Of a DNA stretch of 64,000 nt, positions 7,089 to 30,786 are shown piece by piece (positions within the stretch are counted from its first letter, which is position 1; the number at the start of each line of letters is the position of its first letter). The DNA comes from a virus (taxonomy: Duplodnaviria; Heunggongvirae; Uroviricota; Caudoviricetes). The notes under the pieces were generated by a model that had not been told where the DNA came from, ran no database searches, and was given only the letters and a program-made list of their open reading frames with translations. Where the stretch lies: IMG/VR virus record IMGVR_UViG_3300029852_000006; one strand, 5' to 3'. The position numbers were made by a program, and so were the translations under genes.

Positions 7089-7478
7089 CCCTGTCGTCTT
7101 AGCGTTCCATTAAATTTCGTTTGTGTTGTATACTGTAAGCTTTTTCGCTTCAGGCTCTTCGGTCATATCCAAGAGTACGAATTTGTTACCCCGACCCACC
7201 CCTCCACCTGATCCTGGCCAGCGGATCTGACGGTGACGCCCGAACACATATCGCATCGTCCAAACCTTTTGACACACACCGACTGGTAGAAGAATACTAA
7301 GCCCAATCAATGAAAATTCGAAGATCAGGGTCTAATGGTAGCACAAAGTCCCATCAGAAATCAGTTCAAAAGCTCAACAGTTCAAGGGCATTCTCTTCGG
7401 AATCGGCGACGGAGTCGTTCCTGCAGCCACTATCTCCCATCAGAACACAAACATAACCCTCACATAAGGAGCACTCGT
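7089..7478 (+). ncRNA. candidate structured ncRNA upstream of the reverse transcriptase
   Basis: 390-nt ORF-free stretch in a tightly packed region. Contains the conserved hairpin motif (7155-7185) and a C-rich tract; 9-nt inverted match gtttgtgtt / aacacaaac near its two ends. Confidence 0.3.
7155..7185 (+). repeat. conserved hairpin motif copy 1 (stem ctctt/aagag, loop CGGTCATATCC, then tacGAATTTG)
   Basis: One of 7 copies sharing the loop CGGTYATAYCC closed by co-varying stems. Confidence 0.6.
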
Positions 7479-8669
7479 ATGGTTTACATCACTTATAACT
7501 GCCCGGAACGTTTCCGGGAAATGACGTTTGAAGAACTCCTCCGCGGGGATTTTAACCTCGCAAACCTTTCCACCGGCGGCCACGGTGCTACCCGTACCGT
7601 CATCTGCAACAAAGTTCCTCCCCGCATCATGCGCATCACCAAGGTGGAGCAAATGATCCTCCAGCTCCAGGCGTTCAACCAGCAGTATGAATCCCTTCGC
7701 CTCACCACTCCCCGTTCCAGCCTGTACAACCATTTCCCCATCCCCAAAGCCTCCGGCGGTCTCCGCTGGATCGATGCCCCCAATTCCGACTTAATGAAAG
7801 CCCTCAAGGAACTCAAAACCCTCTTTCAGTCCTGGATGTTTGCCGACCACCACACCTGCGCTTTCGCCTATGTCGAGGACCGCAGCGTCCTCTCCGCCGC
7901 CAAACGTCACCAAAAGTTCGGTGCCTGGTGGTTCGCCCACTTTGATTTCCATGGCTTCTTCCCCTCCACCACGCCGGAGTTTGTCCTCTCCCAGTTTGAA
8001 CTCATTTATCCTTTCAACCTCATCCTTGCCAGCCCCACCGGCCGCGCGGAACTGATCAAAGCCCTTGACCTCTGTTTCCTTAACGGAGCATTGCCGCAGG
8101 GCACCCCCATCTCCCCGCTCATCACCAACATCATGATGATCCCCTTTGACCACGCCTTCGCCAAGGCTGTCAACCATTTTGAATCCGGCAAGCATAACCC
8201 GGACGGAACCCCCATCACCGACCGCCTCTGCTACACCCGCTACGCCGATGATATCATCGTCTCCTGCAAAGTTATCTTCAATTTCCATGCTGTCGAGCGC
8301 CTTATTGTCCAGCTTCTCTCCCAAATGAACGCCCCCTTCACCCTCAATGAAAGCAAAACCCAGTTCCGCTCCCGCGCCGGCCGCAACTGGATTCTTGGCG
8401 TCATGCTCAATAAGGATAACCAAATTACAGTCGGCTACCGCAAAAATAAAATCTTCAAAGCCACCATTGATACCTACTTCCGCGATAAACAAAAGGGCAA
8501 AAAGTGGCCGGATGAAGACCTTCAGTCCTTCCAGGGCAACATTACCTGGTTCAAGGATGTCCAGCCCGATACCACCAAATACATTATCCAAAAGTATAAC
8601 GCCAAATATGGCCTTGACCTTGAATCCTGTATCAAGGCCGATCTCGCCCCGCCCAGCGTAACCGCATAA
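7479..8669 (+). CDS. reverse transcriptase (stand-alone; retron/DRT/Abi-like class undetermined)
   Basis: RT motifs 1 (IPKASGGLRWI), 2 (DFHGFFPS), 4 (LPQGTPISPLITNI), 5 (YTRYADDIIVS), 7 (LNESKT). RBS AAGGAG before ATG 7479 (six-frame ORF extends to 7335). No maturase or endonuclease domain. Confidence 0.85.
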   Translation: MVYITYNCPERFREMTFEELLRGDFNLANLSTGGHGATRTVICNKVPPRIMRITKVEQMILQLQAFNQQYESLRLTTPRSSLYNHFPIPKASGGLRWIDAPNSDLMKALKELKTLFQSWMFADHHTCAFAYVEDRSVLSAAKRHQKFGAWWFAHFDFHGFFPSTTPEFVLSQFELIYPFNLILASPTGRAELIKALDLCFLNGALPQGTPISPLITNIMMIPFDHAFAKAVNHFESGKHNPDGTPITDRLCYTRYADDIIVSCKVIFNFHAVERLIVQLLSQMNAPFTLNESKTQFRSRAGRNWILGVMLNKDNQITVGYRKNKIFKATIDTYFRDKQKGKKWPDEDLQSFQGNITWFKDVQPDTTKYIIQKYNAKYGLDLESCIKADLAPPSVTA

Positions 8670-8740
8670 TCCAAAAAAAAATCAATTTGTTTTCAAAGGT
8701 AAAGTTTCGTTTTGATTTTATTTCAAGTCAAAGCCAAACA

Positions 8741-8771
8741 CCCTCCGGTTATATCCGAGGGTTTGAATTTG
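8741..8771 (+). repeat. conserved hairpin motif copy 2 (stem ccctc/gaggg)
   Basis: Compensatory stem change relative to copy 1, identical loop family, followed by tttGAATTTG. Confidence 0.6.
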
Positions 8772-9231
8772 TCCCCCTGTCCCACCCCCTGGCCAGGACT
8801 CACTCACGTCGCAGCAGCGACTGCATCGAGTCATCGTACTCCCAGACACACGATGGGTCGCCCCACAGCGCATCAGAAAGGGCGGGCCAATGCCCCAGTC
8901 TTTAACAAAATAAGCGAGCAACATCGGAGGCCGCCCCAATCAAACTCAGAAGATCAGTCATCACCACCATCCGATTCCGGTGGCTGCCTCTCATCAGCTT
9001 TCACAAATTGATTTTTATTTTCTCCATTCCGCCCCATGGTTCCGGGGCATTCCCAGGCGCTTCAGTTGTTTCTTCTTTTCTTAGCAGCTCGTTGCGCCCC
9101 CTGTTCGTGCGCCTGGTAAACGCACGGTCATGGTTTTACTTTCCTTTCGCTGGGCCTCCGGCCATCCCAATGGTTGGAGCGCCTGGTAATACCCCGGAAC
9201 CCGCCCACAACAATGAATTCAGGTGATTTTT

Positions 9232-9522
9232 ATGAAACTTATCTCCCCCGGCTCACGGGTCAAATTCTTTACCGTAGGACCAGTTATCAGCCCGGATCAC
9301 AACCCCCTGAAAACTAAATTTCAAATCATCTATCTCTCCGGCACCGTCCAAGAAGATATCGGCAACTGCGTCATCGTCTGGACCGATGATTCCCGCACCT
9401 TCCACGTCCCTCATGGATACATCACCGAAATCCAGGACCCCAACGATCCTTTCACTTATAAGTCTCCCAATACCGTACCTTCCCCAACCGTTTCTTTTGA
9501 TGAAATTATTTCCGCCCTCTAA
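9232..9522 (+). CDS. SFD-L-tail family small protein, paralog 1/13
   Basis: RBS AGGTGA; C-terminus ...VSFDEIISAL. Confidence 0.55.
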   Translation: MKLISPGSRVKFFTVGPVISPDHNPLKTKFQIIYLSGTVQEDIGNCVIVWTDDSRTFHVPHGYITEIQDPNDPFTYKSPNTVPSPTVSFDEIISAL

Positions 9523-9540
9523 TTCATACAGGTGATTCTT

Positions 9541-9804
9541 ATGGACCCTTATTACATTCAACCCGGCACTCCCGTCTATTTTGAAATCAGAACGCTACAT
9601 GGCATAGCCCGTCGTACCCTCCACGGCTTTGTCCAATCTGATACTGGCGCTTATGTCACCGTTATTGTCCCCAGTATGAATAACAAAACATTTATCGCCA
9701 CCCATTCCGCCTTTACTTATGACGATACCCCCGAAGCCGTCACCCCCGCTCCTCTCCCCACTCCTTCCATCTCTTTTGATGAACTTATTTTTCAAGGCAG
9801 GTGA
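9541..9804 (+). CDS. SFD-L-tail family small protein, paralog 2/13
   Basis: RBS AGGTGA; C-terminus ...ISFDELIFQGR. Confidence 0.55.
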   Translation: MDPYYIQPGTPVYFEIRTLHGIARRTLHGFVQSDTGAYVTVIVPSMNNKTFIATHSAFTYDDTPEAVTPAPLPTPSISFDELIFQGR

Positions 9805-9810
9805 TTCCCC

Positions 9811-10107
9811 ATGACCCCCTTCCTCCCCGGCTATGAACCTGGCACCTGGGTCGAGATCGTCTCCGCTCCGGAAATGCTCTGCTCCCTCCAGTATGATTAC
9901 GGCACCACTTTCACCCTCACCGATTCTCTCCCCTATGATCCTATCCTCGGCAAGCAGGGCAAGATCGTTGCCATCCTCGGCAAATCCGGCCTTCTCCGCC
10001 TCTATTTTCCTCACAGCGATTCCTACCACATCATCCCGCCCAGCATGATCTCCCGCACTATCCCCGCTCCGTATCCCAGCTTTGATTCTCTTATCGCAAA
10101 CCTCTAA
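9811..10107 (+). CDS. SFD-L-tail family small protein, paralog 3/13
   Basis: RBS AGGTGA; C-terminus ...PSFDSLIANL. Confidence 0.55.
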   Translation: MTPFLPGYEPGTWVEIVSAPEMLCSLQYDYGTTFTLTDSLPYDPILGKQGKIVAILGKSGLLRLYFPHSDSYHIIPPSMISRTIPAPYPSFDSLIANL

Positions 10108-10133
10108 CCCCCATCACAGAAAGGAAGCCTACC

Positions 10134-10490
10134 ATGAATCCCACCTATAAAGTTGGTGATGTTGTCCAAATCATCTCCGAAGAAGAAGTTCGTTCCCATC
10201 CTACGGATGATTGCGGCAATTTTATTCTTATTCCTTCTATTTACGGCGCAAACGATTCTTTTCACAGAGATAAACTTCCTGTTTGCGGCTGTCCGGCTGT
10301 TATTACCCGCATTTCCAAAGGCAATGAAAGGAACCTATACGATCTCACCCCTCTCTTCGCTGAAGATAGAACCGTTTTTAACTGGAATGACTGGTTTTTC
10401 TCCGCCGCTGAATTTCACCCTCGTGTCGTTTCTCCGCCCCCGGTTCCTTCCATGTCCTTCGATGATCTTCTGAAAGGAGCTGCGCAATGA
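10134..10490 (+). CDS. SFDDLLKG-family small protein, paralog 4/13
   Basis: C-terminus ...MSFDDLLKGAAQ; stop overlaps next start (ATGA). Confidence 0.6.
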   Translation: MNPTYKVGDVVQIISEEEVRSHPTDDCGNFILIPSIYGANDSFHRDKLPVCGCPAVITRISKGNERNLYDLTPLFAEDRTVFNWNDWFFSAAEFHPRVVSPPPVPSMSFDDLLKGAAQ

Positions 10491-10855
10491 ATTTCCCCAC
10501 CTACCCCGTTGGCACCCTCGTTCAAATCATTTCTGACGCAGAGTTTGACGCTCTTCCCAAAAATGATGCTGGCTGTGCGCTGTTTCTCGATCCCCTTCCT
10601 AATGGTAACGCAGATTATATACCCCCTAAACGCCGTTCTCTTTGTGGCAGCATCATGCAAATTGATCGTAAACTTGACGCTTCTGGTTTTTACTTCTTAA
10701 AACCCTACGATCTCTCCACCGCTGTCGATCCCTCCGCAGCTGCCAAATTCTCTTGGAACTCCGCTCTTTTCTCCCCCAATGAATTCCACCCCTATGGTAC
10801 CCCGGTTCCCGTTTCCCCTGTTTCCTTTGACGATTTCCTGAAAGGAGGCATTTGA
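10487..10855 (+). CDS. SFDDLLKG-family small protein, paralog 5/13
   Basis: C-terminus ...VSFDDFLKGGI. Confidence 0.6.
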   Translation: MNFPTYPVGTLVQIISDAEFDALPKNDAGCALFLDPLPNGNADYIPPKRRSLCGSIMQIDRKLDASGFYFLKPYDLSTAVDPSAAAKFSWNSALFSPNEFHPYGTPVPVSPVSFDDFLKGGI

Positions 10856-11239
10856 ATGCCAGCCCCCTACCCCACCTACCACGTCGGTGATCGCGTCATC
10901 GTCCGCCAGTGGGATGATATGATGGAAGAATTCGGCTCCAATCCTTACGGTGATATCACTGTTCATCCCAATAAACTTTCTTTTATTCTTGACATGAAAC
11001 CTTACTGTGGCAAAGAGTTTATTGTTGTCAAAATCGTTCATGATAAAGATCTTCCTGATGAACCCATTTATTTTCTCAATTATTCACCGGATGTTTATGT
11101 AGACCTTAATGATGGTGATTCTCCTCGCGGTTGGTTTTTCACCTCTGCCATGCTTCTCCCCGCAACTCTCCCCAATGAACCCCAAAACCGTATTCCCACC
11201 CCTTCTCTCACCTTCGATGATTTACTTCAAGGAGTCTAA
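10856..11239 (+). CDS. SFDDLLKG-family small protein, paralog 6/13
   Basis: N-terminal 'YPTYHVGDRVIVRQWDDMMEEFG' module; C-terminus ...LTFDDLLQGV. Confidence 0.6.
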   Translation: MPAPYPTYHVGDRVIVRQWDDMMEEFGSNPYGDITVHPNKLSFILDMKPYCGKEFIVVKIVHDKDLPDEPIYFLNYSPDVYVDLNDGDSPRGWFFTSAMLLPATLPNEPQNRIPTPSLTFDDLLQGV

Positions 11240-11244
11240 TAACC

Positions 11245-11601
11245 ATGGATACTACCTTTAACCCCAATGACTATCCTACCTACCAAATTGGCGATCGAGT
11301 TACCATTCGCCAATGGGACGATATGAAGTCAGAATTTGGTTTGAACAGATTTGGTGACATTAAAGTCCCAAAAGCTTGTTTCACAGAGCCTATGAGAAAA
11401 TATTGCGGGAAGACACTCACCATTGTCCGTAAAAACCACCATCTATCTCCGAATTCTGATTGTTACTATTTCGACGGTAGCACAATGGTTTTTACTTCCC
11501 TCATGTTTGAACAATCTTATCCCACAGTTGTCTCCTCCACTCTCTCCTTTGATGATTTGTTGAAAGGAATTACCTCTCAACTGGCAAATCCCCAAGCATA
11601 A
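11245..11601 (+). CDS. SFDDLLKG-family small protein, paralog 7/13
   Basis: N-terminal 'YPTYQIGDRVTIRQWDDMKSEFG'; C-terminus ...LSFDDLLKGITSQLANPQA. Confidence 0.6.
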   Translation: MDTTFNPNDYPTYQIGDRVTIRQWDDMKSEFGLNRFGDIKVPKACFTEPMRKYCGKTLTIVRKNHHLSPNSDCYYFDGSTMVFTSLMFEQSYPTVVSSTLSFDDLLKGITSQLANPQA

Positions 11602-11730
11602 ATACCACGGCGCTTCCATGGCCGATTTTGCCAGCCACACCCCGCCGTGTCCCAACGATCAACCTCAAAAATAAAACAGCTTAACAAGGTAAAGAATCAT
11701 TTGCTGATTATATTTTCAGTTCATGCTTCA

Positions 11731-11762
11731 CTCTTCGGTTATATCCAAGAGTTCGAATTTGT
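11731..11762 (+). repeat. conserved hairpin motif copy 3 (stem ctctt/aagag)
   Basis: First 35 nt nearly identical to copy 1, then diverges into a C-rich tract. Confidence 0.6.
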
Positions 11763-11980
11763 TACCGCCTCCCCCTCCTGGATCGCAGGCGCCTGCTGCA
11801 GACTGAGCGCCTCATCGCGCGCTCGCGATGACACCAAAAGACCCACCACAGAGCCAAAATAAGCGATAACACGTCATGCGCAAGACAAACTTTTGATCCA
11901 CCCCAAAAAGACCGTTTCCCACCAGCTTGTTCCCTGTTTTATTTTGAATCTATTTTTACCATCAGAAAGGATCAACCATT

Positions 11981-12136
11981 ATGACCAAACTTACCTACAC
12001 CCTCGCTATCATCAACGGTACTGTCTGCTATGAATGTCAGCCCTCCACCCCGCACGCCTTCTATTCGGGCGGCGGCTGGTTCGCCCCGTTCTGTACCGTC
12101 CTCGAACTCACCCGCAAAAACACCGTCAAAGCATAA
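11981..12136 (+). CDS. hypothetical small Cys-containing protein (51 aa)
   Basis: RBS GAAAGGA; not in ORF table (<60 aa). Confidence 0.3.
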   Translation: MTKLTYTLAIINGTVCYECQPSTPHAFYSGGGWFAPFCTVLELTRKNTVKA

Positions 12137-12185
12137 CAAATATCCAATATCTATTTATCCCATATCACAGAAAGGAACTTTCAAA

Positions 12186-13622
12186 ATGACTCAAAATCTT
12201 ACCCTTGTTACCCAAAAGCCTTTTGGCTCCCTCACCTGCAACGTCTACCAGGACGAAAACAATAAAAACGAATTCTACATGACAAGGCGTCAAATTGGTG
12301 AAGCACTAGGCTATGTAAAAGCTGATGATGCTATTTGGCAAATTCATGAGCGAAATAAAGATCGCCTTGACTCTTTTTCAGAAACCTCCGTTCTGGGGGT
12401 CGCTGAAGGAAATCGCACGGTACGCCGTGAAATTTGTGTATATACTTTGAGGGGGGTTATGGAAATCTGCCGTTTCTCCCGCCAGCCCAATGCGGATAAA
12501 TTCATGGACTTCGTATGGGACGTTATGGAATCCCTTTACTATGGCCGCAGCGTCCTCGCCACCCCAGACCAAACCTCCGCCGTCGCCATGCAAACCATCC
12601 AGGCTCTTGTTGATTCCACCCTCAAAACCCAGGCCGAAACCACCCGCTGCATGGTCACAATGACCACCACCCTCGCTGCCCTCGCCAACCATTTCACCGG
12701 TGCCGTTCCCGCTCAGCAGCCTGCCCCGCAACCCGTCACCGTCACCCCCAAGGATTATGCCGTCCACGATGACCCCGCCCCCAGTTCCAAAAACGAATCC
12801 ACCCCGGTACCCGCCCCGCAAAAGTCAAGTGTCCCTGTTACTGTAACTCCAAAATCTGCATCCGCCCCCGTTACCTGGCGTGATGAAGTCTACCAAACCA
12901 TGGATAAAATCATCCGCAATGCCCCGGAGCTTTACCCCTCCCGCCGCGATATCCTCAACCAGATCTACGCCAAAATGAAACGGGATTACGGCTTTGTCCA
13001 GGAGCAGGAGCGCATCAACTACCGCAAAGCCCATGCCTGCACCTCCTACCTCTCCACCATCCAAATCATCGGGGCCTCCACCACCTACCGCGAAATCTTT
13101 GATTCCATTTTGAACGATATCTATAACGATGCCATCATCAAGCACGTCCGCAAAAACGATTCCAACCCCAATTCTCAGCTCCCCCTCGGCGTCCAGCGGG
13201 AACTTGGCCTGATTAAAGATGAACCCTGTATTATCAAGTCCCCCACCACCGACCTTGATTCTCAGCCCGTCCCTGCTCCCCTCCCGGACGAACCCAAAAA
13301 CTATAAGCCCATCCCTTCTCAGTCCCTTCTCGATGAACGCGCTGCCGCCATCAATGCCGCCATCGCCAAAGCCGCTGCCATCTACCATGATACCTCCTGC
13401 AACTTCTCCGTCACCTACCGCAACGTCTATAAAAATATGAATACCGATTGGGACGAAGTTCACACCCAGTTCCGTGCCCGCTATCATCGCGGTGCCCAGC
13501 AGCTCAAAACCCTTGTCATGTACAGCGACGTCCTGTTTGATCGCTTCAATGCCGCCGTCAACACTTATATTAACGCCGCATCCAAGCCGGAAGTCGAATC
13601 CGCATCCAAGAAGGAGGCTTAA
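12186..13622 (+). CDS. phage antirepressor-like protein (Bro-N/ORF6N-type N-terminal domain)
   Basis: N-terminal block 'FGSLTCNVYQDENNKNEFYMTRRQIGEALGY...IHERNKDRL' typical of ORF6N/Bro-N antirepressor domains; RBS GAAAGGAAC before ATG 12186. The six-frame ORF start at 12030 overlaps the previous gene. Confidence 0.6.
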   Translation: MTQNLTLVTQKPFGSLTCNVYQDENNKNEFYMTRRQIGEALGYVKADDAIWQIHERNKDRLDSFSETSVLGVAEGNRTVRREICVYTLRGVMEICRFSRQPNADKFMDFVWDVMESLYYGRSVLATPDQTSAVAMQTIQALVDSTLKTQAETTRCMVTMTTTLAALANHFTGAVPAQQPAPQPVTVTPKDYAVHDDPAPSSKNESTPVPAPQKSSVPVTVTPKSASAPVTWRDEVYQTMDKIIRNAPELYPSRRDILNQIYAKMKRDYGFVQEQERINYRKAHACTSYLSTIQIIGASTTYREIFDSILNDIYNDAIIKHVRKNDSNPNSQLPLGVQRELGLIKDEPCIIKSPTTDLDSQPVPAPLPDEPKNYKPIPSQSLLDERAAAINAAIAKAAAIYHDTSCNFSVTYRNVYKNMNTDWDEVHTQFRARYHRGAQQLKTLVMYSDVLFDRFNAAVNTYINAASKPEVESASKKEA

Positions 13623-13624
13623 AT

Positions 13625-14230
13625 ATGTCTACCCTCACCATCCCCGTTCAAACCAAACAAACCCTCACCGGCACCTACGCCAAATCCGGCAATGATCTTT
13701 ATTTTATCTCCGAAGAACCCGACCTCTTTCCTCCCAACCCCCGCACGGATTGGGATTGTTACTCCACATTCTATATCGCCCCCAACCGTTATTTCTCCGG
13801 TGATATACCTGTCAGCGCTTTTGTCCCTGATGTCAAAGCCGGCATCGAACCTGAATACGTCAAACTCCCTATCTATGCCTACGTTCACTCCGCCATCGCT
13901 CTCTCCACCACGCCGTTCCATGATGATTTTGATTCCGGCCTTGCCGGTTTCGCCGTCTGCACCCGCCAGGACGTGGCCGACCTCGGCTACTCCACCCCGG
14001 ACTGGCGCTCCCATGCGGAGAACGTGATCAAAAGTGAGCTTGAACTCTATCAGCAGTACCTCAACGGCGAAGCAAAAGCTCTCACCCTCTATCAATATAA
14101 CCCCGATTCCAATGAGTGGGAAGTAAACAATTCCTGCGGCGGCTGCTATAACATCGAATCCGATCAGGATATGGTTGATGTCTTCTTTTCCAACGCCACC
14201 GCCCTCGACCACCCCGATTTTGAATCCTGA
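13625..14230 (+). CDS. hypothetical protein (201 aa)
   Basis: ORF with coupled start (TAAATATG). Confidence 0.5.
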   Translation: MSTLTIPVQTKQTLTGTYAKSGNDLYFISEEPDLFPPNPRTDWDCYSTFYIAPNRYFSGDIPVSAFVPDVKAGIEPEYVKLPIYAYVHSAIALSTTPFHDDFDSGLAGFAVCTRQDVADLGYSTPDWRSHAENVIKSELELYQQYLNGEAKALTLYQYNPDSNEWEVNNSCGGCYNIESDQDMVDVFFSNATALDHPDFES

Positions 14231-14265
14231 CCCCCCTACATACAAAAAAAAAGGAAGTTGATCTT

Positions 14266-14958: not shown

Positions 14959-14969
14959 GGTGATTTTTT

Positions 14970-20150: not shown

Positions 20151-20367
20151 GGGTATTTGCAAAAATAGGTGGTTTGAATAAAACCATCTGTTTTTACAAA
20201 TACCACAGGCATTTGGATGTTTGTTGCGCCTATCGATTTTCCCAGTTGATAGCTCCGCACGAGTGGCATTGTCTCGTACAATACCGCTCACAGCAAACAC
20301 CCAGCCAAGGGAAACACAACCTCCTGTTTCAGCAGGAGAGACTTACAGTAAAAGGAGGGTAGCGTAT
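20151..20367 (+). ncRNA. candidate omega-RNA of IscB-1
   Basis: Conserved position of the guide/scaffold RNA immediately 5' of iscB; inferred from family knowledge, not folded here. Confidence 0.35.
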
Positions 20368-21906
20368 ATGCCTACTGTATATGTGTTAAACAAAGATGGT
20401 AAACCTTTGATGCCAACGACTCGCTGTATGCATGTGCGCCATCTCCTTAAGAATGGAAAAGCACGAGTCGTAAAATCAAAACCGTTTACTATCCAGTTGC
20501 TTTATGAAACTGATGATGTAGTTCAACCCCTATATTTGGGTATCGACCCTGGTAGGACCAACATCGGCGTTGCCGTTGTCAAAGCAGACGGGGCGGCGGT
20601 CTTTACTGCGCATCTTGAGACCCGCAATAAGGAAGTCCCTAAGCTGATGAAAAAGCGTAAGGAATCACGCTGCGCAAGACGCACCAACGGCAGACGCTGC
20701 CGCCGTCAGCGGAGAGCAAAAACCAACGGCACTATTTCTAAGAAGTGCGTAAAGCAAACCACTGCTCAAAATGGTAGTGTTAGTAAACGTGCAAAAGAAA
20801 TTGGCGTTATCAAGCGCCATCTTCCGGGTTGTGAGAAAGATGTACTTTGCATTGGTATCAAAAACAAAGAGGCAAAGTTCACCAATCGTGCAAGACCGGA
20901 AGGATGGCTTACGCCTACTGCAAATCAGTTGCTACAGACACACATCAACTTGGTGAAGAAAATTCAGAAGTTTCTTCCTATCAGTGATGTTGTGCTTGAA
21001 GTCAACAAATTTGCGTTCATGCAGCTTGACAACCCTAACATTCAGAAATGGCAGTATCAGCAAGGCCCACTCTACCAAAAAGGGAGCCTTGAAAATGCTG
21101 TTTCTGAAATGCAGGAACACCATTGCCTATTTTGTGAGAAGCCCATTGAACATTACCATCATGTAGTACCAAAATCCGAAAACGGTAGCAACACTATCGC
21201 CAATATTGTTGGTCTATGCACGGAGCATCACAATCTCGTTCATAAGGATGCTACCTGGCAAAAGAAACTCGCCAAAGAAAAAGTCGGACTCGTCAAAAAG
21301 TACAGTGCTTTGAGCGTATTGAATCAAATCATTCCGGCATTGACGAAAGAGATGAATTCTCTTTTTCCGAAGCATTTCTTTGTGACCAATGGTAAAAGTA
21401 CCTACGACTATCGTACAGCGCACGGTGTGAGTAAAGACCATTGGCTTGATGCTTATTGCATTGCCTGTTCTGTTTTACCCAACGATGTTTGTGATAGCAA
21501 TATAAACAGCCATGTGCCATACGAATTAAAGCAGTTCCGCCGCCATGATAGAAGAGTGCTACACAAAGCGAACATGAGCCGCGTGTACACACTCAATGGC
21601 AAAACAGTGGCAACGAATCGCCACAAGGCTATTAAACAGACTACCGACAGTTTGGAAGAGTTTCGTCAAAGCCATCCAGGTGATGTTTGCAAGCTCAAGG
21701 TGAAAGAGCATCATCCTGCATATAGAAACTTGAACCGTAACTATCCAGGAAGTGTATTTCTTGTTGACGGGCAAGTTCATGTGATGCAAGGAGTTAGCGG
21801 CTCACATAATGGCAAAGCAGATGGATATTACAATACGAATGGCAACGCATATCCATATTATAAATGTAAATTTGTTGTCAAAAACGAAGGAATTGTATTT
21901 GCATAA
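20368..21906 (+). CDS. iscB: IscB (OMEGA RNA-guided nuclease, Cas9 ancestor)
   Basis: N-terminal PLMP motif (GKPLMPT), RuvC-I 'LGIDPGRTNIGVAVV', HNH 'CLFCEKPIEHYHHVVPKSENGSNTIANIVGLCTEHH', RuvC-III 'HWLDAYCIA'. RBS AAAGGAGGG before ATG 20368. Confidence 0.8.
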   Translation: MPTVYVLNKDGKPLMPTTRCMHVRHLLKNGKARVVKSKPFTIQLLYETDDVVQPLYLGIDPGRTNIGVAVVKADGAAVFTAHLETRNKEVPKLMKKRKESRCARRTNGRRCRRQRRAKTNGTISKKCVKQTTAQNGSVSKRAKEIGVIKRHLPGCEKDVLCIGIKNKEAKFTNRARPEGWLTPTANQLLQTHINLVKKIQKFLPISDVVLEVNKFAFMQLDNPNIQKWQYQQGPLYQKGSLENAVSEMQEHHCLFCEKPIEHYHHVVPKSENGSNTIANIVGLCTEHHNLVHKDATWQKKLAKEKVGLVKKYSALSVLNQIIPALTKEMNSLFPKHFFVTNGKSTYDYRTAHGVSKDHWLDAYCIACSVLPNDVCDSNINSHVPYELKQFRRHDRRVLHKANMSRVYTLNGKTVATNRHKAIKQTTDSLEEFRQSHPGDVCKLKVKEHHPAYRNLNRNYPGSVFLVDGQVHVMQGVSGSHNGKADGYYNTNGNAYPYYKCKFVVKNEGIVFA

Positions 21907-23041: not shown

Positions 23042-23105
23042 AAAAAATAAAAACCAGGGTCGCAAAACCCTGGCGTACATCCTCCCATTCAAAGGAGCGT
23101 TGCTT

Positions 23106-23672: not shown

Positions 23673-23701
23673 TCACTATATAATAAGGTAGGTAATTTGC
23701 T

Positions 23702-24195: not shown

Positions 24196-24344
24196 TGTTA
24201 GTACAGGTTTCCGTTCTAGTATCTTGAATTCCTTTGTGCTATACTCGCATTATACAACAAATGGTTGTCAATTACAACTATTGGGATTAAATTCTCACCA
24301 TTTTCCAGTCCATCTTTTCGGACGTCAATGAATAAGGAGGAGCC

Positions 24345-24680: not shown

Positions 24681-24764
24681 ATTTTACTGTTGACTTCTTG
24701 TAAGTAACGTGGTATGATAATATCACAAGGTAAGCAATAAATAAGTAAAGGAGGTTTCCCCGCT

Positions 24765-25184
24765 ATGTTCAAACCCAGTACCTCGGTTCCCAAATTTGGC
24801 GAAATCCGGCTGGGCTGTGCTCCGCAAGACCATGCCCTGCTCGGTACGCACAAGTACGTTGGTATTCATCCCTATCTGGTCGTCAGCAATGATGTTTATA
24901 ACAAATTCAGCGGCCAGTGTGATGTCATCCCCTTCACCACCAAGCGCTTTGCAAGTGCCAGTCCAACGCATGTTGATTACCCAGCCGGTTCCATCCGCGG
25001 CCTAACGCGGGATTCTACCCTCGTGGTCGAAGCGCGGGATACCCTCCTGAACTCTCAGCTTGGTGAACCGATTGCCCGCTTCTCGGATGAAAACTGGCAG
25101 CGGGCCAAAAAAGCTTTCCTCACTCAAAATCCATTCCTTACCCGCTGGATCATCCCGGAACCCCGCCCAACACCGGTTGCATAG
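24765..25184 (+). CDS. MazF/PemK/EndoA-family endoribonuclease toxin-like protein
   Basis: Aligns by eye to B. subtilis EndoA: 'GIHPYLVVSNDVYNKFSGQCDVIPFTT...SPTHVDYPAGSIRGLTRDSTLVVEARDT' vs 'RPVLVIQNDIGNRFSPTAIVAAIT...[27 protein letters not shown]'. Preceded by strong promoter TTGACT-17-TATGATAAT. Confidence 0.75.
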   Translation: MFKPSTSVPKFGEIRLGCAPQDHALLGTHKYVGIHPYLVVSNDVYNKFSGQCDVIPFTTKRFASASPTHVDYPAGSIRGLTRDSTLVVEARDTLLNSQLGEPIARFSDENWQRAKKAFLTQNPFLTRWIIPEPRPTPVA

Positions 25185-25247
25185 TTTTTCTTTGCATTTC
25201 CTGTCTACATACGTTATACTATAAATAACTAGAAAGGCAGGATCTGT

Positions 25248-26357
25248 ATGGGCAAAACTATTATCGATCGGTATAACAATGATTCTGTTCGTATTGATCG
25301 TTATCAGCAACTTATCTCTGATATTACCAATGCTTATATTACGGTCAATCACGGCAAAACCGTTCCGCAGTATATCCAAAAAATCATTCCCCGGCTTTCC
25401 TACACGCTCGAAACATATGAGCATCAGTACGGCACCCGGTTTGAATCCTTTTCCTATCAGCAGTACGCATCGTTTTATAAGCAGGCAATCATCGGCAACT
25501 CGGCAAGTGCAGTTATCAACCGCAACAAGCTGGTCCTTCTCTCCTGTTACCTGGATTACCTGGTTCTTCAAAACGTTATCACACTGGATCAGTCAACAGG
25601 TCATCCGTTCCGTCAGTTTCTTCAGATGTCACCGGCTGATAATGAGGACGATTCTCAAATTCCGTCCAAGCCATCCCTCACTACCGTTTCCAATCCCAGC
25701 AAACCCACTCTGCAGCAGTCCCTTGATTCCTATTCTCAGCAGATGCTCTTTTCTGATGAAGAATTTGAATCTCTGCTGGAAGCTATCTTTAATAACAGCG
25801 ATCTGGACTGTATGCCCCGTGCAATCTATACCCTTGCCTGGTGCGGTGTGGAGGTCAAAAACATTGCTCTTATCAAAAAAGCGGATGTCGATCTTACCCG
25901 TATGGTAATTTACGCCACCGAACAAAATCACCTCCCGCAGGATATTGTGATTTCTTCCTCTTTCTGCTGTATCAACCTTGAAAAAGCCATGCTTGCGCAA
26001 GGTATCCTGGTACCCAATCGTACCGGTATGCGTGAAGTATCGTTTTTTGGCCGCGATGATTATGTGATCCGCGGTGTAAAAGGCGCCAACAAGGCCGAAA
26101 CGCCGGACCCGGACGCCAGCGGTTTTTATATCGTCAATAACATCAACCGCGTCTATTCTCAGCGCCAAGAACAGCTCCCGGTGAACAATCCCTTCAAAAA
26201 CAAAAAAGTTCTCGTCAGCTCTTGTTATAAATCCGGCCGGTTCCTGCGGCTCTTCAAAACACAACAGCTGTCAGAAAAACTCTGGGGCGTTTATAGCAAT
26301 GATTTCGTTTACTCTTACAAAAAGTGGCTGTCTTACAAGCAGCTCAACTTAAAATAA
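25248..26357 (+). CDS. hypothetical protein; weak resemblance to tyrosine-recombinase N-terminal/core-binding region
   Basis: 'LAWCGVEVKNIALIKKADVDL' arm-like segment but no R..HxxR..Y catalytic motifs found. Confidence 0.4.
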   Translation: MGKTIIDRYNNDSVRIDRYQQLISDITNAYITVNHGKTVPQYIQKIIPRLSYTLETYEHQYGTRFESFSYQQYASFYKQAIIGNSASAVINRNKLVLLSCYLDYLVLQNVITLDQSTGHPFRQFLQMSPADNEDDSQIPSKPSLTTVSNPSKPTLQQSLDSYSQQMLFSDEEFESLLEAIFNNSDLDCMPRAIYTLAWCGVEVKNIALIKKADVDLTRMVIYATEQNHLPQDIVISSSFCCINLEKAMLAQGILVPNRTGMREVSFFGRDDYVIRGVKGANKAETPDPDASGFYIVNNINRVYSQRQEQLPVNNPFKNKKVLVSSCYKSGRFLRLFKTQQLSEKLWGVYSNDFVYSYKKWLSYKQLNLK

Positions 26358-26406
26358 TTTTTCTCATCGTGGGGCATCGTCGTCCCACATTTTTACGGGC
26401 GCTATA

Positions 26407-26424
26407 TTACAAGTTTTCGCAAAC
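26407..26424 (+). promoter_or_regulatory. conserved motif TTACAAGTTTTCGCAAAC (copy 2 of 3)
   Basis: Identical 18-mer to 3156-3173, 24 nt upstream of RBS of gene 26448. Confidence 0.45.
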
Positions 26425-26447
26425 ACTATTTTCAGGAGGTTTTTCCC

Positions 26448-27098
26448 ATGACTACCGAATCCATGTCCATTCACCGCGCTCTGGTGGAACTCAAAACTAT
26501 TGATTCCCGGATCATCAAAAAGATCGATTCCGCCAAGTTCTGTGTCGCCGCCAAAGCCAAAGCTACCAAGCTCGGTGCAATCACGGTGGATGAATTCAAA
26601 ACATCTGCTCAGGCCAGTTATGATTCCGCTATGGATCTCATCAATCGCCGCAACGCCATCAAGGCCGCTGTCTCAAAGTCCAACGCGGTCACAGAAATTT
26701 CAGTGAACAATAAAACTTATACCGTGGCCGAAGCCATCTCTCTCAAGCAGCACGGCATGGAATACCTGGACTACCTGCGCAGCCATATTCAGGCCCAGTA
26801 TTCAAACGAAACCTCTCAGATCACCTCCGCCAATCTCCGTGTGGAAGCCAAGGCCGATGATATGGTCAAATCGATCTGCGGCGGCGATTCCAAAACCAAG
26901 GATGCCGATCCTGAAACTGTCGCCAAGATCCGCAACACCTATCTTGAACAGAACTCCATGGAGCTGGTCGATGGCCTCACCAAAGGCTGTACTCAAATCA
27001 TTGAAGACCTGCAGTCCCAGATCAATTCCTTCAACAACGAAATTGATTCCGCCCTCTCTGTTTCCAACGCCATTACCCAGATCACATTCAGCTACTAA
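26448..27098 (+). CDS. hypothetical protein (216 aa)
   Basis: RBS AGGAGG. Confidence 0.5.
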   Translation: MTTESMSIHRALVELKTIDSRIIKKIDSAKFCVAAKAKATKLGAITVDEFKTSAQASYDSAMDLINRRNAIKAAVSKSNAVTEISVNNKTYTVAEAISLKQHGMEYLDYLRSHIQAQYSNETSQITSANLRVEAKADDMVKSICGGDSKTKDADPETVAKIRNTYLEQNSMELVDGLTKGCTQIIEDLQSQINSFNNEIDSALSVSNAITQITFSY

Positions 27099-27503
27099 GC
27101 TGTTTTGATACCATTTGCCTGTATACCGAAAGCGTCAAACCACAAGCCGCTTTGTCCGCTGTGGAATAATGACAAAGTTAAAACTATAAACACCTGTTCC
27201 ACGATCATTAGAATTATGATAAAAATATTGGTTCATTCTTTGTGGCTGCATTTTTGTATGCCCAGCCCATCAGAATGAATGTTTTGCCCGGAAAGTTTAA
27301 TGCTTAACGCTTAAACCTCAACGCTCAAATTTCAAACCTTATTTTTCATCAAAGTTTATTCTTCAACCCCCAAGGCTCAAGGCTCTATTAAATCCTTGGC
27401 GCAAGGTCATGTGCATGGCTGTGTCGGCACCTCGCTGTCCTCAAGGCTGGTACATGGGCAACGTGCGAAGGCGGTAGCACGTTAAAACAATCCGCCCTGG
27501 TAA

Positions 27504-27578
27504 GCGGCTGTCGTACAACGGCCAGTATACAAGCCTTCCAAGCTTGGGATGGGGGTTCGACACCCCTCAGCCGCTCCA
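27504..27578 (+). tRNA. tRNA-Gly (anticodon UCC)
   Basis: Hand-folded cloverleaf: acceptor gcggctg/cagccgc, D-stem gtac/gtat, anticodon stem caagc/gcttg with loop cuUCCaa, T-loop ttcgaca, encoded 3' CCA. Confidence 0.65.
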
Positions 27579-27670
27579 CAACAGAATAACTTCATTTTGG
27601 TTTCACACCGTAAAGTCCCGTCACACCGGCGCGGCCGTGGATTGGCGGCACCGGGTAGCAAACGGCTCCA

Positions 27671-27693
27671 CACCTCGGTCATATCCAGTGGTC
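27671..27693 (+). repeat. conserved hairpin motif, partial copy (loop CGGTCATATCC)
   Basis: Loop conserved; lacks the GAATTTG tail. Confidence 0.4.
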
Positions 27694-27857
27694 AGCGGCT
27701 TTTTCGAAGTTCTTGCTTCCATTCAGTTCAAACAGTTTGTCGAGCTGTCTGCGGCTGAAAATGTTCTGTTCGTATTTCCAAATGAACTGCGAAAAGCTTA
27801 TGCCCTCTTTGTTATCAAACGCAAGCCACTTGTCGTAAATGGCGTTGTTACAATTTT

Positions 27858-27890
27858 CCTGTGACTGCGTATATCCAGGTGTTTGAATTT
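27858..27890 (+). repeat. conserved hairpin motif copy 4 (...gcgTATATCCaggtgtttGAATTTG)
   Basis: Shares ATATCC loop core and GAATTTG tail; ~85 nt upstream of tRNA-Thr. Confidence 0.5.
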
Positions 27891-27973
27891 GAATCTATGT
27901 ACCCGTCACCAGTACAAATATATGTACCATATCGCGGGGTGTCGTCTCCATCATGAATTTATTCTGTTATTAT

Positions 27974-28050
27974 GCCAGGTTAGCTCAATTAGGTAGAGCA
28001 GCCGTTTTGTAAGCGGCAGGTTGTGGGTTCAAGTCCCCCACCTGGCTCCA
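27974..28050 (+). tRNA. tRNA-Thr (anticodon UGU)
   Basis: Acceptor gccaggt/acctggc, D-stem gctc/gagc, anticodon stem gccgt/gcggc with loop uuUGUaa, T-loop ttcaagt, encoded CCA; one T-stem mismatch. Confidence 0.65.
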
Positions 28051-28835
28051 CCGTTCCGGTTCATACCGGGGCGTCATGGCTCCCAGCGCCGGTCAAGTCT
28101 GGGGTACGCGGAGGGCAATCTCTCCGTCAAATCAGTGGGTGAAATAAACTCGCTGGACGCTTTATTCTGGTCTAACCCCCAGATGCTAAAGCAATGGCAG
28201 AGCAGCGGCACACTGCCTCAAAACTATTCCGTTGGCACCTTCGGGCAGGTAACAGTCCACCTTGCCGGGTTCAAAGCCGTCTTTACGGCAGTCTTAACAC
28301 GCAGCACCCAGCATGAAACCGATCGGCAGAACTTTTGGTCAGCTTCCAAACATCTTTCTGGCCAATGACAAGATGGGAAAGTCCTCCGGGCTGCGGCGAG
28401 TAATAAGCAGCGGTAAGTACCTATCGACATATGGTGAGACGGCTAAGCACGTCACTGGTACCTCAAGGGTGGGATGCCCTTTCACACGGAGCAATACTCA
28501 AGCTGGTTTAAGAGGCGTCCCTGCTAAGGACGTAGCCAACAACCCCGCCTAAACCGGTCCTCCGGTTATAGATGGGATTTACGGGGAAACTCGTAAGTCC
28601 GGTTGGTTAGCCTAAGTCTGCTGCTCCGGCAACAGGAAACTACGTTGTGTACCAATAATATAGGCACCTTACTCATGCTCCACAAGTGGTAAGCTCTGCG
28701 GACGGCTCGTTAAACATCTCTGAGGGTAGGAGAAGTGCGAACGTCATGTCGAAAGGCTAAAACGGTATAACAACATTGGCGATGTGGACCACAGGGCGCA
28801 AGCCCTGACTTATTGATTTATTATTTACGAAAGGG
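28051..28835 (+). ncRNA. long ORF-free structured region between tRNA-Thr and iscB; expected location of the IscB-2 omega-RNA
   Basis: 785 nt with only short ORFs, GC-rich with many local hairpins; IscB omega-RNAs are encoded immediately 5' of iscB (family knowledge). Confidence 0.35.
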
Positions 28836-30242
28836 GTGCCTTGCATGAGCACTTGTGCTTGTGTTTTCAGTAAAAGCGGCAAACGCCTGATGCCGACCAT
28901 CCGTCTTGGCAAGGTGCGCCATCTTCTGAAAGACGGAAAGGCAAAAATTATTAAGCATCATCCGTTTACCATCCAGTTGCTGTATGACAGCGAAACGAAT
29001 ATTCAACCCATCGAAATCTGCGAGGATGTGGGTTACAACTACATTGGCATCAGCGTGAAAAGCCAATCTCACGAATATGTGTCTGTACAATATGATACAT
29101 TGCAGGATGAGAAAGACTGCCACGATAGTTGTCGTAAGATGCGCCGCATCCGTAGAAACAGGTTACGTTACCGCAAGCCGCGTTTCGACAATCGTAAGCG
29201 TAATAAAGGTTGGCTTGCGCCCTCTCTTGAACATAAGAAAGAACTCAATGTTAATGTCATCAAGATGTATTGCAAGGTAGTTCCTATTACGCATGTAACT
29301 GTTGAAGTTGGTTCTTTCGACACAATGCTTGTAAAAGCCATCCAAGAGGGTAAAGCTATACCGGAAGGCGCAGATTATCAAAAAGGCCCTCGCTACAATT
29401 TGGCCACACTACGTGAAGCGGTTTTTTATCGCGATAAATATACCTGCCAAGTTTGCGGGCGCAAGGCTAATGAAGGTGCAATTCTGCATGTGCATCACAT
29501 GTTCTACTGGAAGGGTCGTCACGGCAATAGTCTCAGCGAACTTCTTACTGTGTGTGAAAAATGCCATACACCGGCTAACCACCAACAAGGCGGCAAGCTC
29601 TACAGATTTGGTGAAAATATAAAGTTCGCCAATCTTTCCGGTGCGGCATTTATGAATACTGTGCGCTGGCAAATCGTCAATGAACTTTACACTGCTTTTG
29701 GCAAGCTGTTCGTCACATTCACTTATGGTGCGATGACCAAGGAAAAGCGGATTGCCTTTCATCTTGAAAAGTGTCATAACAACGATGCGTATGCAATGGG
29801 GAACTTTCATCCAGTTGACCGCTGCGCGTTTGAACATTATAAAAAGGTGAAACGCAATAACCGCATTCTCGAAAAATTTCATGACTCCCAGTACATTGAC
29901 ATCCGCACCGGCAAAGTGGCTAACGGCAGAAGCCTCTTTAACGGTAGAATCAACCGCAGCCATAAAAAGAATTCCGAGAACCTGCACAAGTATCGTGGGA
30001 AAAGGACTCGTAAAGGCTACCGTGCTCTACGCCGCAAAAAGGTAGCCCTCAATCCCGGTGACTTGGTTTCTCTTAACGGAGAAATTCTTGTTGTCCATAG
30101 CACTCATGCCGGAAAGAATGGTTATGTAGGCGTAGAATTCAAAGCTCCATCAAAAAGCGGCAAAAAGTCTGCCAGTCTCAAAAAACTAAAAATTGTTAAA
30201 ACATCAAACTCCATGCGCTCTGCGTGGACTAAAGTATCTTAA
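28836..30242 (+). CDS. iscB: IscB (OMEGA RNA-guided nuclease), second copy
   Basis: PLMP-like 'GKRLMPT', RuvC-I-like 'DVGYNYIGISV', HNH 'CQVCGRK...HVHHMFYWKGRHGN...CEKCH', RuvC-III 'HNNDAYAMGNF'; basic C-terminus. Confidence 0.8.
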   Translation: MPCMSTCACVFSKSGKRLMPTIRLGKVRHLLKDGKAKIIKHHPFTIQLLYDSETNIQPIEICEDVGYNYIGISVKSQSHEYVSVQYDTLQDEKDCHDSCRKMRRIRRNRLRYRKPRFDNRKRNKGWLAPSLEHKKELNVNVIKMYCKVVPITHVTVEVGSFDTMLVKAIQEGKAIPEGADYQKGPRYNLATLREAVFYRDKYTCQVCGRKANEGAILHVHHMFYWKGRHGNSLSELLTVCEKCHTPANHQQGGKLYRFGENIKFANLSGAAFMNTVRWQIVNELYTAFGKLFVTFTYGAMTKEKRIAFHLEKCHNNDAYAMGNFHPVDRCAFEHYKKVKRNNRILEKFHDSQYIDIRTGKVANGRSLFNGRINRSHKKNSENLHKYRGKRTRKGYRALRRKKVALNPGDLVSLNGEILVVHSTHAGKNGYVGVEFKAPSKSGKKSASLKKLKIVKTSNSMRSAWTKVS

Positions 30243-30336
30243 AAACGTTTGTACTTACCAAGTATACCTCAAATATACTCTTGGCCAGCGCATTCCTCAC
30301 CGCCTAAGTCGCAGGTGACTATAGACGGTATAACAT

Positions 30337-30429
30337 GCTCCCATATCTCAATGGTAGAGAAGCGGCCTTATAGCCCGCCTAGCACCAGATTAGTGCGTAA
30401 TCCCTGTTCAAGTCAGGGTGGGGGTACCA
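30337..30429 (+). tRNA. type-II (long variable arm) tRNA with atypical anticodon arm; identity uncertain
   Basis: Acceptor gctccca/tgggggt (two G-U), D-stem tctc/gaga, variable arm gcac/gtgc, T-arm ccctg-ttcaagt-caggg, 3' CCA. Anticodon stem has only 4 clean pairs around the sequence ccttatagc. Confidence 0.45.
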
Positions 30430-30580
30430 GCCTTACGGACTTGCCGTAAGGGATTGAAACCGTTTTTTGACGGTTTATCGGTGATAACATAAAAACCACC
30501 GTTTCGGTATGGCAGCACCGATCAATGGCCAAACCTGCCACCCAATCATCCCGCTGGTAAAACCGTGCTCTAGCACCGCA

Positions 30581-30602
30581 CTCCGGTCATATCCGAGCGC
30601 TT
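30581..30602 (+). repeat. conserved hairpin motif, partial copy (stem ctc/gag, loop CGGTCATATCC)
   Basis: Loop identical to copies 1/5. Confidence 0.4.
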
Positions 30603-30755
30603 ATCCAAGTCGGCTGGGTTCTGTGATAGACAATCACTTCAACTGCGGTGGGATGATTTTTTTTCTTTGGTGTCTCGCCTTTCACGGCGTTTCATATTCC
30701 CGGCAAAGTCCCTGGTACCTACAGGCACCGCCTTCACGGCCTGCCCCGCATACCG

Positions 30756-30786
30756 CTTCCCGGTCATACCCGGAAGATTGAATTTC
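30756..30786 (+). repeat. conserved hairpin motif copy 5 (stem cttcc/ggaag, loop CGGTCATACCC, then attGAATTTc)
   Basis: Compensatory stem; sits 6 nt upstream of the start of gene 30792. Confidence 0.55.

Follow-up and report, generated by a model that had tools for sequence, protein, structure and literature searches.

A 64,000-nucleotide (nt) stretch of DNA from a tailed virus (Caudoviricetes; IMG/VR record IMGVR_UViG_3300029852_000006), referred to here as the window, encodes a reverse transcriptase (RT) of apparent retron type and contains six copies of a structured non-coding unit, one of them directly upstream of the RT gene. The units share a conserved and co-varying architecture around a small hairpin, P2, and enclose a hypervariable core. 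On balance the arrangement is best read, with considerable room for doubt, as a retron-like RT of a phage or phage-plasmid served by several paralogous template or leader RNAs.

The consensus CGGTYATAYCC, which forms the apex of P2, has six exact matches in the window (7160, 8746, 11736, 27676, 30584 and 30761), all on the + strand, against 0.04 expected from shuffles, none of 100 of which reached six. It is closed by a 5-bp stem that reads CTCTT/AAGAG at 7155 and 11731, CCCTC/GAGGG at 8741, CTTCC/GGAAG at 30756, CACCT/AGGTG in the copy at 27671 (from intact relatives) and, with one mismatch, CACTC/GAGCG at 30579. The loop adds an inner GG/CC stem past a bulged C, giving the form 5'-YYYYY-C-GG-TYATAY-CC-RRRRR-3', often with one extra outer pair. 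In an ungapped alignment of nine sequences, paralogues and orthologues together, 95.8% of cells are paired, both sides have changed in five of the eight pairs, and the covariation score was reached by none of 500 shuffles; when the register is slid only 26-56% of cells are paired. P2 is an element selected for structure rather than for sequence. A covariance model of the copies, run over the whole window with filters off, returned five full copies at 45-62 bits and both halves of the copy that begins at 27671, and no additional convincing copy. A 17-bit match to this model at 63451-63499 (-), poorly paired and inside an open reading frame (ORF), was treated as chance.

The original prediction for this DNA had proposed the loop and its co-varying closing stems, and exact matches, shuffles and the covariation test all bear it out; nor does the motif evolve as plain sequence in homologous genomes, where the stems co-vary too. 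Seven copies had been counted. There are six units, because a single hairpin, split by an insertion of ~190 nt, accounts both for the entry at 27671 (its 5' half) and for that at 27858 (its 3' half). The supposed partial copy at 30581 is a complete hairpin (30579-30599) that lacks GAATTTG. The 3' flank, described as GAATTTG and a C-rich tract, is correct for copies 1-3, in which nnnGAATTTG precedes the tract, but not for copy 5, which has ATTGAATTTC, or for the 30579 hairpin. A GGTAAAG placed about 30 nt upstream in fact ends 36 nt before the stem and occurs in copies 2 and 3 only, and copies 1 and 3, held to be identical over ~35 nt, differ at 2 of 36 positions. The copies do flank the RT gene, as had been noted, but it was missed that the hairpin is one stem-loop of a larger unit resembling the msr-msd RNA of retrons.

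That larger unit, of 115-340 nt, is bracketed by an inverted repeat, a1/a2, whose sequence differs between copies. Its order is a1, a G, a variable hairpin P1, P2, the linear element TAnCnAYTTG, a core of 50-260 nt, a second G and a2 (Table 1). P1 and P2 are found in all full units; P1 has a different sequence in every one and yet folds in each, and P2 combines a freely co-varying outer stem with an apical part that is fixed within one genome. In the loci of RT homologues a2 is the exact reverse complement of a1, 150-356 nt downstream, and a1 differs from unit to unit. A strict hallmark was defined as an a1 of 7 nt or more with a G after it, and an exact reverse complement downstream with a G before it; 28 of 39 distinct units have it, as compared with 246 of 1950 controls (12.6%) in which the same upstream segments were paired with random downstream segments. 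The a1/a2 pairing was judged by such exact-complement tests with controls, RNAduplex on long segments being uninformative. The 14-nt exact complement of unit 2 was reached by 1 of 200 controls (fold z = -3.2) and the 12-nt complement of unit 3 by 4 of 200; across an internal loop a1/a2 extend to AAAG/CTTT in unit 2 and to ACAAG/CTTGT in unit 3, with opposing Gs, and the GGTAAAG mentioned above is this extension of a1. RNAalifold on 16 unit-1 orthologues recovered a1/a2, P1 and P2, all of which are invariant among these close relatives. The G that follows a1 in unit 1, G7128, is kept in 34 of 35 orthologues and is, from its position and conservation, a candidate branching G.

In most units a ribosome-binding site and the ATG of an unrelated gene follow 5-25 nt past a2, and the long non-coding stretches in which the copies had been seen to lie are leaders ahead of genes. 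Among the roles first envisaged (small RNA, leader or promoter) that of leader stands, the promoter does not, and units 5 and 6, each ending in a closing helix and a T-run, look like stand-alone small RNAs. Two further features were tried and set aside. A helix P3 between TAnCnAYTTG and a downstream complement (7178/7314; also in loci L137 and L140) is not kept in unit-1 orthologues and is not claimed. The TTG of GAATTTG as the start of proline-rich leader peptides was rejected because the frames are not conserved: they run to 15, 80 and 15 codons in units 1, 2 and 3 respectively, and to no more than 3-6 in other clades.

Unit 4 is interrupted within the P2 loop by the ~190-nt insertion (27689-27870 together with one copy of the repeat), on either side of which stands the 8-nt direct repeat ATATCCAG. 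The insertion is present in the window and seven relatives, absent from others and confined to this one site. The unit is intact in L036 and L081, with the same a1/a2 (10-11 nt) and a span of about 200 nt, and the intact P2 of L029, L036 and L081 reads CACCT-CGGTCATATCC-AGGTG-TTTGAATTTG. On its - strand the insertion holds an open frame of 66-70 codons (…YTQSQENCNNAIYDKWLAFDNKEGISFSQFIWKYEQNIFSRRQLDKLFELNGSKNFEKAADHWI*) without an ATG, GTG or TTG start.

Table 1. Features of the window and related loci (amino acids, aa; metagenome-assembled genome, MAG; non-coding RNA, ncRNA)
Feature	Coordinates	Strand	Details
Unit 1, RT-proximal retron-like ncRNA	7119..7452	+	a1/a2, opposing Gs, RNAalifold, conservation profile
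Unit 1 a1	7119-7127		GTTTGTGTT
Unit 1 G	7128
Unit 1 P1	7133-7153
Unit 1 P2	7154-7176
Unit 1 conserved linear and C-rich segment	7177-7201
Unit 1 hypervariable core	about 7202-7428
Unit 1 conserved segment	7434-7443		CTCCCATCAG; last base G7443 opposite G7128
Unit 1 a2	7444-7452		AACACAAAC
Unit 2	8677..9016	+	starts 8 nt past RT stop codon
Unit 2 a1	8677-8690 plus 8695-8698
Unit 2 G	8699
Unit 2 P1	8704-8739
Unit 2 P2	8740-8762
Unit 2 linear element	8763-8771		TTGAATTTG
Unit 2 variable core	about 8785-8984
Unit 2 second G	8997
Unit 2 a2	8998-9001 plus 9003-9016
Unit 3	11668..11945	+	ribosome-binding site and ATG 11981 come next
Unit 3 a1	11668-11679 plus 11684-11688
Unit 3 G	11689
Unit 3 P1	11694-11729
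Unit 3 P2	11730-11752
Unit 3 linear element	11755-11763		TCGAATTTG
Unit 3 variable core	about 11775-11914
Unit 3 second G	11925
Unit 3 a2	11926-11930 plus 11934-11945
Unit 4	27580..27968	+	from tRNA-Gly end to tRNA-Thr start
Unit 4 a1	27580-27589		AACAGAATAA
Unit 4 P2 5' half and loop	27670-27688
Unit 4 direct-repeat copies	27681-27688 and 27871-27878		ATATCCAG
Unit 4 P2 3' half	27871-27882
Unit 4 linear element	27883-27891		TTGAATTTG
Unit 4 a2	27959-27968		TTATTCTGTT
Unit 6, short form	30544..30667	+	115 nt; covariance model 44.6 bits
Unit 6 a1	30544-30552		AATCATCCC
Unit 6 P2	30579-30599		CACTC / loop / GAGCG, no GAATTTG
Unit 6 a2	30650-30658		GGGATGATT; T-run after
Unit 5, short form	30698..30858	+	150 nt; covariance model 52.7 bits
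Unit 5 a1	30698-30707		TCCCGGCAAA
Unit 5 G	30708
Unit 5 P2	30756-30776
Unit 5 linear element	30777-30786		ATTGAATTTC
Unit 5 a2	30838-30847		TTTGCCGGGA; preceded by G, T-run after
Predicted retron-type RT, 396 aa	7479..8669	+	Pfam RVT_1, PADLOC, NCBIfam and PDB matches
Unknown protein, 446 aa	4301-5641	+	upstream of unit 1
Weak JAB-like protein	5644-6408	+	weak JAB match
ThiF/E1-like adenylyltransferase	6405-7088	+	Pfam ThiF 2e-22; PADLOC E1-E2
Viral loci with RT-proximal unit			L129, L132, L134, L137, L139-L143, L145, L176
MAG loci with RT-proximal unit			L188, L191, L192, L194

Unit 1 starts 30 nt past the preceding gene and ends 26 nt before the RT start. This start was placed at ATG 7479 (MVYIT...), behind AAGGAG, and not at the mechanical ORF start of 7335, because homologues share that N-terminus and align only from there. 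The best matches of the protein in PADLOC (RT_II-A, 1e-44), NCBIfam and PDB (the Ec78/Ec83 RT chains, 1e-13 to 1e-17) are all retron RTs, and by these matches it is classed as retron-type. Most features expected of a retron are found together: an RT of the retron clade and a contiguous ncRNA with hybridising a1/a2, opposing Gs and short hairpins; of those that define the ncRNA, only the long stable msd stem-loop is absent.

Distant loci were obtained by fetching RT homologues of 36-49% identity with their flanks. The unit layout was also found upstream of RT homologues 36-60% identical, on other phage contigs and on MAG contigs of Clostridia. In one clade after another, copies of a hairpin stand on both sides of the RT, with an outer stem like that of the window (CTTCT/AGAAG, CTTTT/GAAAG) and an apex peculiar to the clade, such as C-GCC-AAA-GGC, GCT-GTY-AGC, CGCG-TTC-CGCG or CTTTTGAT-TAC-ATCAAAAG. 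The outer stems show many double compensatory changes across clades (CTTCT/GGAAG, CTTTT/GAAAG, CTGTT/GACAG, CTCCG/CGGAG, CAGTG/CACTG, CTTGC/GCAAG), and TA(A/C)C(A)AYTTG, which corresponds to TACGAATTTG in the window, invariably comes next after the hairpin in other clades. Both in the window and in the viral and MAG loci listed in Table 1, whose RTs are 42-49% identical to that of the window, the end of the RT-proximal unit lies 6-33 nt ahead of the RT start. A scan restricted to the region upstream of the RT found the hallmark in 9 of 14 further loci with RT homologues, four MAG contigs among them, and in 8 of those 9 a2 again ends 6-33 nt before the RT start. All units of a genome have one P2 apex in common and apices differ between RT clades; similar apices go with more similar RTs (the window with L188, L143 with L191), the correlation being only loose.

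One large clade of loci, L150-L172 (RT 36-41% identical to that of the window), has a different appearance. Coding sequence appears to reach the RT start, a tRNA gene follows the RT, and no a1|G...G|a2 unit was found upstream of the RT; any ncRNA of this clade must lie elsewhere or have a different look.

It is also clear from comparison of 32 close relatives that the unit combines highly conserved ends with a hypervariable interior. Mean pairwise identity is 0.974 over P2 and the conserved segment (7155-7200), 0.60 over the unit-1 core (7205-7440) and 0.957 from a2 to the RT start, and the RT gene itself stands at 0.963 over all positions and 0.913 at third codon positions. The length of the unit-1 core is nearly constant among relatives, and units 2 and 3 have the same conservation profile. 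Even pairs whose RT genes are 97-98% identical have cores that average only 64% identity. Inside allele groups the core varies at 39-43% of its columns and shows about as many transitions as transversions, as against 9-10% of columns and a transition bias of 5-8:1 in the RT gene. In base composition the core is rich in C and A (A 0.30, C 0.325, G 0.20, T 0.17), and its varying columns are spread over all bases (A 20/62, C 23/61, G 21/47, T 26/41). No reading frame in the core is conserved or consistently open on either strand, and it is therefore unlikely that its complementary DNA (cDNA) encodes a protein in the manner of DRT2, a reading that was accordingly rejected. Core exchange between units was not found, the deletion hybrid described below excepted. 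The conserved stretches that flank the core, TTACCCCGACCCACCC after P2 and TCYCAYCAG before a2, sit where a retron RT would terminate and initiate.

By analogy with retrons the following mechanism can be proposed. Unit 1 would be the cognate RNA of the RT that begins 26 nt past its a2, and the other five units, which have the same P2 apex, would be paralogues. The same RT may act in trans on every unit, with P2 as the feature recognised; priming would take place at the G that follows a1, and cDNA of the core would be made from a point next to a2. The gene downstream of each leader could also come under control, whether by synthesis of cDNA or by binding of the RT, a regulatory effect that we infer because a2 often lies 5-25 nt before the ribosome-binding site.

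A number of observations weigh against this proposal. All distant loci were retrieved through the RT, which biases the sampling towards RT-bearing phages. One relative without the RT, L059 (IMGVR_UViG_3300045988_160459), still has the next unit downstream; its deletion, corresponding to window 7204-8742, has removed the unit-1 core, the RT and the 5' part of unit 2, apparently by recombination between ~47-nt homologous scaffolds of units 1 and 2, and has left a hybrid unit in which a1 and a2 no longer match. Units 2-4 either need an internal loop in a1/a2 or lack a flanking G, and units 5 and 6 end in T-runs, as ordinary small RNAs do. The NCBIfam match of the RT to retron_St85_RT, at 168 bits, is below the curated cutoff of 235. 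Aligned to the Ec78 RT, the protein reads AAKRH where Ec78 has NAAAH, and ILG where it has VTG; of the NAxxH and VTG signatures it keeps the H and the G but not the N, V and T. The two kept residues count on the other side, being named as the most conserved of their motifs by Mestre et al. 2020 (PMC7736814), who also state that an RT is guided to its msr by the VTG region. A long msd stem was not encountered, the unit-1 core having a mean z of +0.1 against shuffles in 16 orthologues, and over 21 units the core gave a mean z of -0.86 with only 5 below -2; because the core folds no better than shuffles the units are called retron-like and not canonical. Rfam, including the retron msr (RF00170) and HEARO families, gave nothing at gathering score at the units, and a permissive search of 6900-12100 gave no relevant match up to E = 5, which agrees with the initial impression that no named element is matched.

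The main rival to a retron-like system is an RT-independent cis-regulatory leader or processing module. Another phage protein would then bind the P2 apex, for instance an antiterminator comparable to lambda N at boxB, a repressor of translation or an endoribonuclease. The RT would be one of several leader-bearing genes, and the CA-rich core a Rho-loading or ribosome-standby region. Because the distant loci were all found through the RT, and because of L059, we regard this as a serious possibility, though clearly the lesser one. The mostly short distance (5-25 nt) from a2 to the ribosome-binding site and ATG of unrelated genes fits it, as does a core that is CA-rich and unstructured in the way of Rho utilisation sites; units 4-6 lie among tRNA genes or end in T-runs, and the unit downstream of the deletion in L059 persists without the RT. 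Such a module leaves unexplained, however, the hallmarks of a retron, namely the terminal inverted repeats, opposing Gs and msr-type hairpins, and the fact that one unit always abuts a retron-type RT across 36-100% RT identity. No candidate RNA-binding regulator was identified among the window proteins, and relaxed constraint alone would not account for the divergence of the core, which proceeds at about 4 times the rate of third codon positions.

Three other explanations are far less probable. An element acting at the level of DNA, whether a phage promoter, a hairpin promoter of the N4 virion RNA polymerase type or an operator, with TAnCnAYTTG as the recognised sequence, is improbable. All copies are oriented with the downstream genes, the conserved linear segment keeps a fixed distance from the hairpin, and AT-rich -10-like hexamers (TATACT/TATATT) lie upstream of copies 1-3. 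The promoter reading was nevertheless dropped because a1 lies upstream of these hexamers and because a scan for sigma-70-type promoters (-35 and -10 hexamers at 16-18 nt spacing) over 6900-12200 gave no excess, with 5 sites against 4.9 expected and none at the motif copies. Only at the level of a transcript does it make sense for a1 to pair with an a2 as far as 340 nt away, and if the two pair in RNA the hexamers lie within the transcript; unit 2 moreover begins 8 nt past the RT stop and unit 1 30 nt past the preceding gene. No phage RNA polymerase or sigma factor was found among the proteins scanned, and an operator would keep its arms conserved and not co-varying. A diversity-generating retroelement (DGR), in which the cores would be variable or template repeats mutated by the RT, might be suspected from an RT that adjoins a hypervariable segment with a transversion-rich spectrum, but is very unlikely: the RT is retron-type and not DGR-type, all four bases vary about equally and the variation is therefore not of the adenine-specific DGR kind, no invariant template copy is paired with a variable copy inside a target gene, and neither strand of the variable segment keeps a reading frame. 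Least credible of all is a mobile element in which a1/a2 are the terminal inverted repeats of a miniature inverted-repeat transposable element (MITE) or insertion sequence (IS) family. Inverted repeats of 9-18 nt do bracket non-coding segments of 115-340 nt, and one unit has an insertion flanked by an 8-nt direct repeat. The repeats differ between units, however, while remaining complementary, and are therefore not transposon ends, which a transposase would require to be conserved; the units occupy the same orthologous positions in about 35 relatives, do not exchange cores, show no target-site duplications around them, and the 190-nt insertion is at one site only. The MITE or IS terminal repeat, raised at the outset as an outcome that would undo the motif, is not what the units are.

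Whatever the fate of the RT link, the units are a well-supported new structured RNA family, and were that link wrong they would remain a widespread family of leader RNAs in Clostridia phages. If the link is right, a multi-unit, phage-borne system with a hypervariable core and no msd stem would be an unusual form of the retron kind, a judgement in which we have moderate confidence. A more specific proposal, which we put forward as tentative and would not at present bet on, is that one retron-type RT of a Clostridia phage or phage-plasmid serves a "regulon" of at least six leader-embedded template RNAs and is coupled to an E1-like/JAB-like module. The template cores, which diverge several-fold faster than synonymous sites, could do so because error-prone cDNA returns to the phage genome by recombination, or because the cDNAs or RNAs act as sensors or decoys in a contest with the defences of the host. 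Retrons consist of one RT, one template RNA and an effector and act as bacterial anti-phage defences; to our knowledge they are known only with a single template, and in the literature searched for phage-encoded or multi-ncRNA retrons no description of the present arrangement was found. Retron-type enzymes would then have a wider role, one phage RT acting on several leaders that combine a handle with a fast-evolving interior and precede different genes, possibly in phage gene control, counter-defence or targeted diversification. The hypervariable cores are a sharp signal of conflict or programmed mutation in gut phages. Retrons serve as genome-editing tools because the template interior is swappable, and a natural multiplexed scaffold would here be on offer.

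The three genes at 4301-7088, upstream of unit 1, are candidate partner or effector genes of the RT module. By tblastn the genes for the 446-aa, JAB-like and E1-like proteins adjoin the RT in 24, 51 and 54 distant loci respectively, and the E1-like protein is better conserved than the RT. The operon is reminiscent of ubiquitin-like conjugation modules of the Cap2/Cap3 or Bil type, here phage-borne and RT-linked, and we know of no pairing of E1-like/JAB-like proteins with an RT among published retron types.

The window has 48.5% G+C with genes mostly on the + strand, and encodes a DnaE-type polymerase, NrdD, a DnaB-like helicase, a PD-(D/E)XK nuclease, PhoH, a Rep3 initiator, a ParB-like protein, a Bro-N protein and three tRNAs. 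Because the Rep3-type replication initiator and a ParB-N protein (57476-61234, -) sit beside phage replication genes, a phage-plasmid lifestyle is suggested. Megablast of 6000-14000 against INPHARED phages gave no match, and tblastn of DnaE gave only matches of <45% identity, to gut 'Bacteriophage sp.' records and Bacillus/Geobacillus phages; judged by these searches no deposited phage is closely related to the window. IMG/VR contains about 35 near-identical contigs, of 85-150 kb, and another near-identical contig, of 141.6 kb, was binned with a Lachnospiraceae MAG; Clostridia MAGs contain homologues of the RT that are more distant.

Several features close to the units were recorded in passing. 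An inverted repeat at 9038-9201, with 27-nt arms that are 89% complementary and 110 nt apart, looks like a long stable stem-loop; it fills the gap from the a2 of unit 2 to the first small gene (ATG 9233), outside the a1/a2 bracket. An array of about eight paralogous small genes (90-127 aa) follows at 9233-11601, with a common 3'-terminal DNA block containing TTYGATGA (…CCTTCGATGATCTT…) about 35 nt before each stop; for two of these genes neither Pfam nor NCBIfam gave a match. Two genes of IscB type (RRXRR + HNH) lie at 20221-21906 and 28535-30242, the second in an island between tRNA-Thr and tRNA-Ile. The HEARO/omega RNA at 28535-28794 (83.4 bits) that precedes the second IscB belongs to that gene and not to the motif. 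The tRNA-Ile itself (30337-30429, anticodon TAT) was called by ARAGORN and was not reported by the Rfam tRNA model at gathering score; at 93 nt it is unusually long and may contain an insertion or be a false call.

Among known systems, DRT2-type defence RTs resemble the present one in combining an RT with an ncRNA of roughly 300 nt made up of a conserved scaffold and a template segment, but the window RT is of another clade, matching the Drt2 model at only 38 bits, and the core of the units has no frame open throughout on either strand. The nut sites of lambda (boxA/boxB) likewise present a hairpin with a conserved loop and a variable 5-bp stem, an adjoining linear element and occurrence at the head of several operons of one phage. 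They lack, however, the opposing Gs and a helix that closes over a long range, and are not linked to an RT; here, moreover, the hairpin precedes the linear element and no N-like protein was identified. Canonical retrons are closer, with a retron-clade RT directly downstream of an ncRNA that has an a1/a2 duplex and two opposing Gs, and with two short msr-type hairpins and an interior free to vary; the closest RT models are those of types I-A/II-A, e.g. Ec78/Eco7 and St85/Sen2. In the msr-msd transcript terminal inverted repeats hybridise and a conserved branching G primes, two opposing Gs being shown in Figure 2B of the same work, the msr consists of one to three short hairpins, and the msd, contiguous with the RT, folds into a long and stable stem-loop (Mestre et al. 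2020, PMC7736814). The present system differs in having at least six units per RT over 24 kb, many of them leading other genes, no long stable msd stem-loop, the motifs AAKRH and ILG, and E1-like/JAB-like neighbours that are not known among the effectors of published types; it belongs to a large phage or phage-plasmid of Clostridia. In the hyRNA of type VI retrons the template is fused to a translationally controlled gene and cDNA synthesis derepresses translation, and Retron-Vpa2 of this type has one hyRNA, one small toxin and a partner helix-turn-helix protein and acts in bacterial defence (bioRxiv 10.1101/2025.10.22.683967). Here several leaders precede unrelated genes and translational repression is only putative, but Retron-Vpa2 and the window have in common a template and a downstream coding sequence on one structured transcript.

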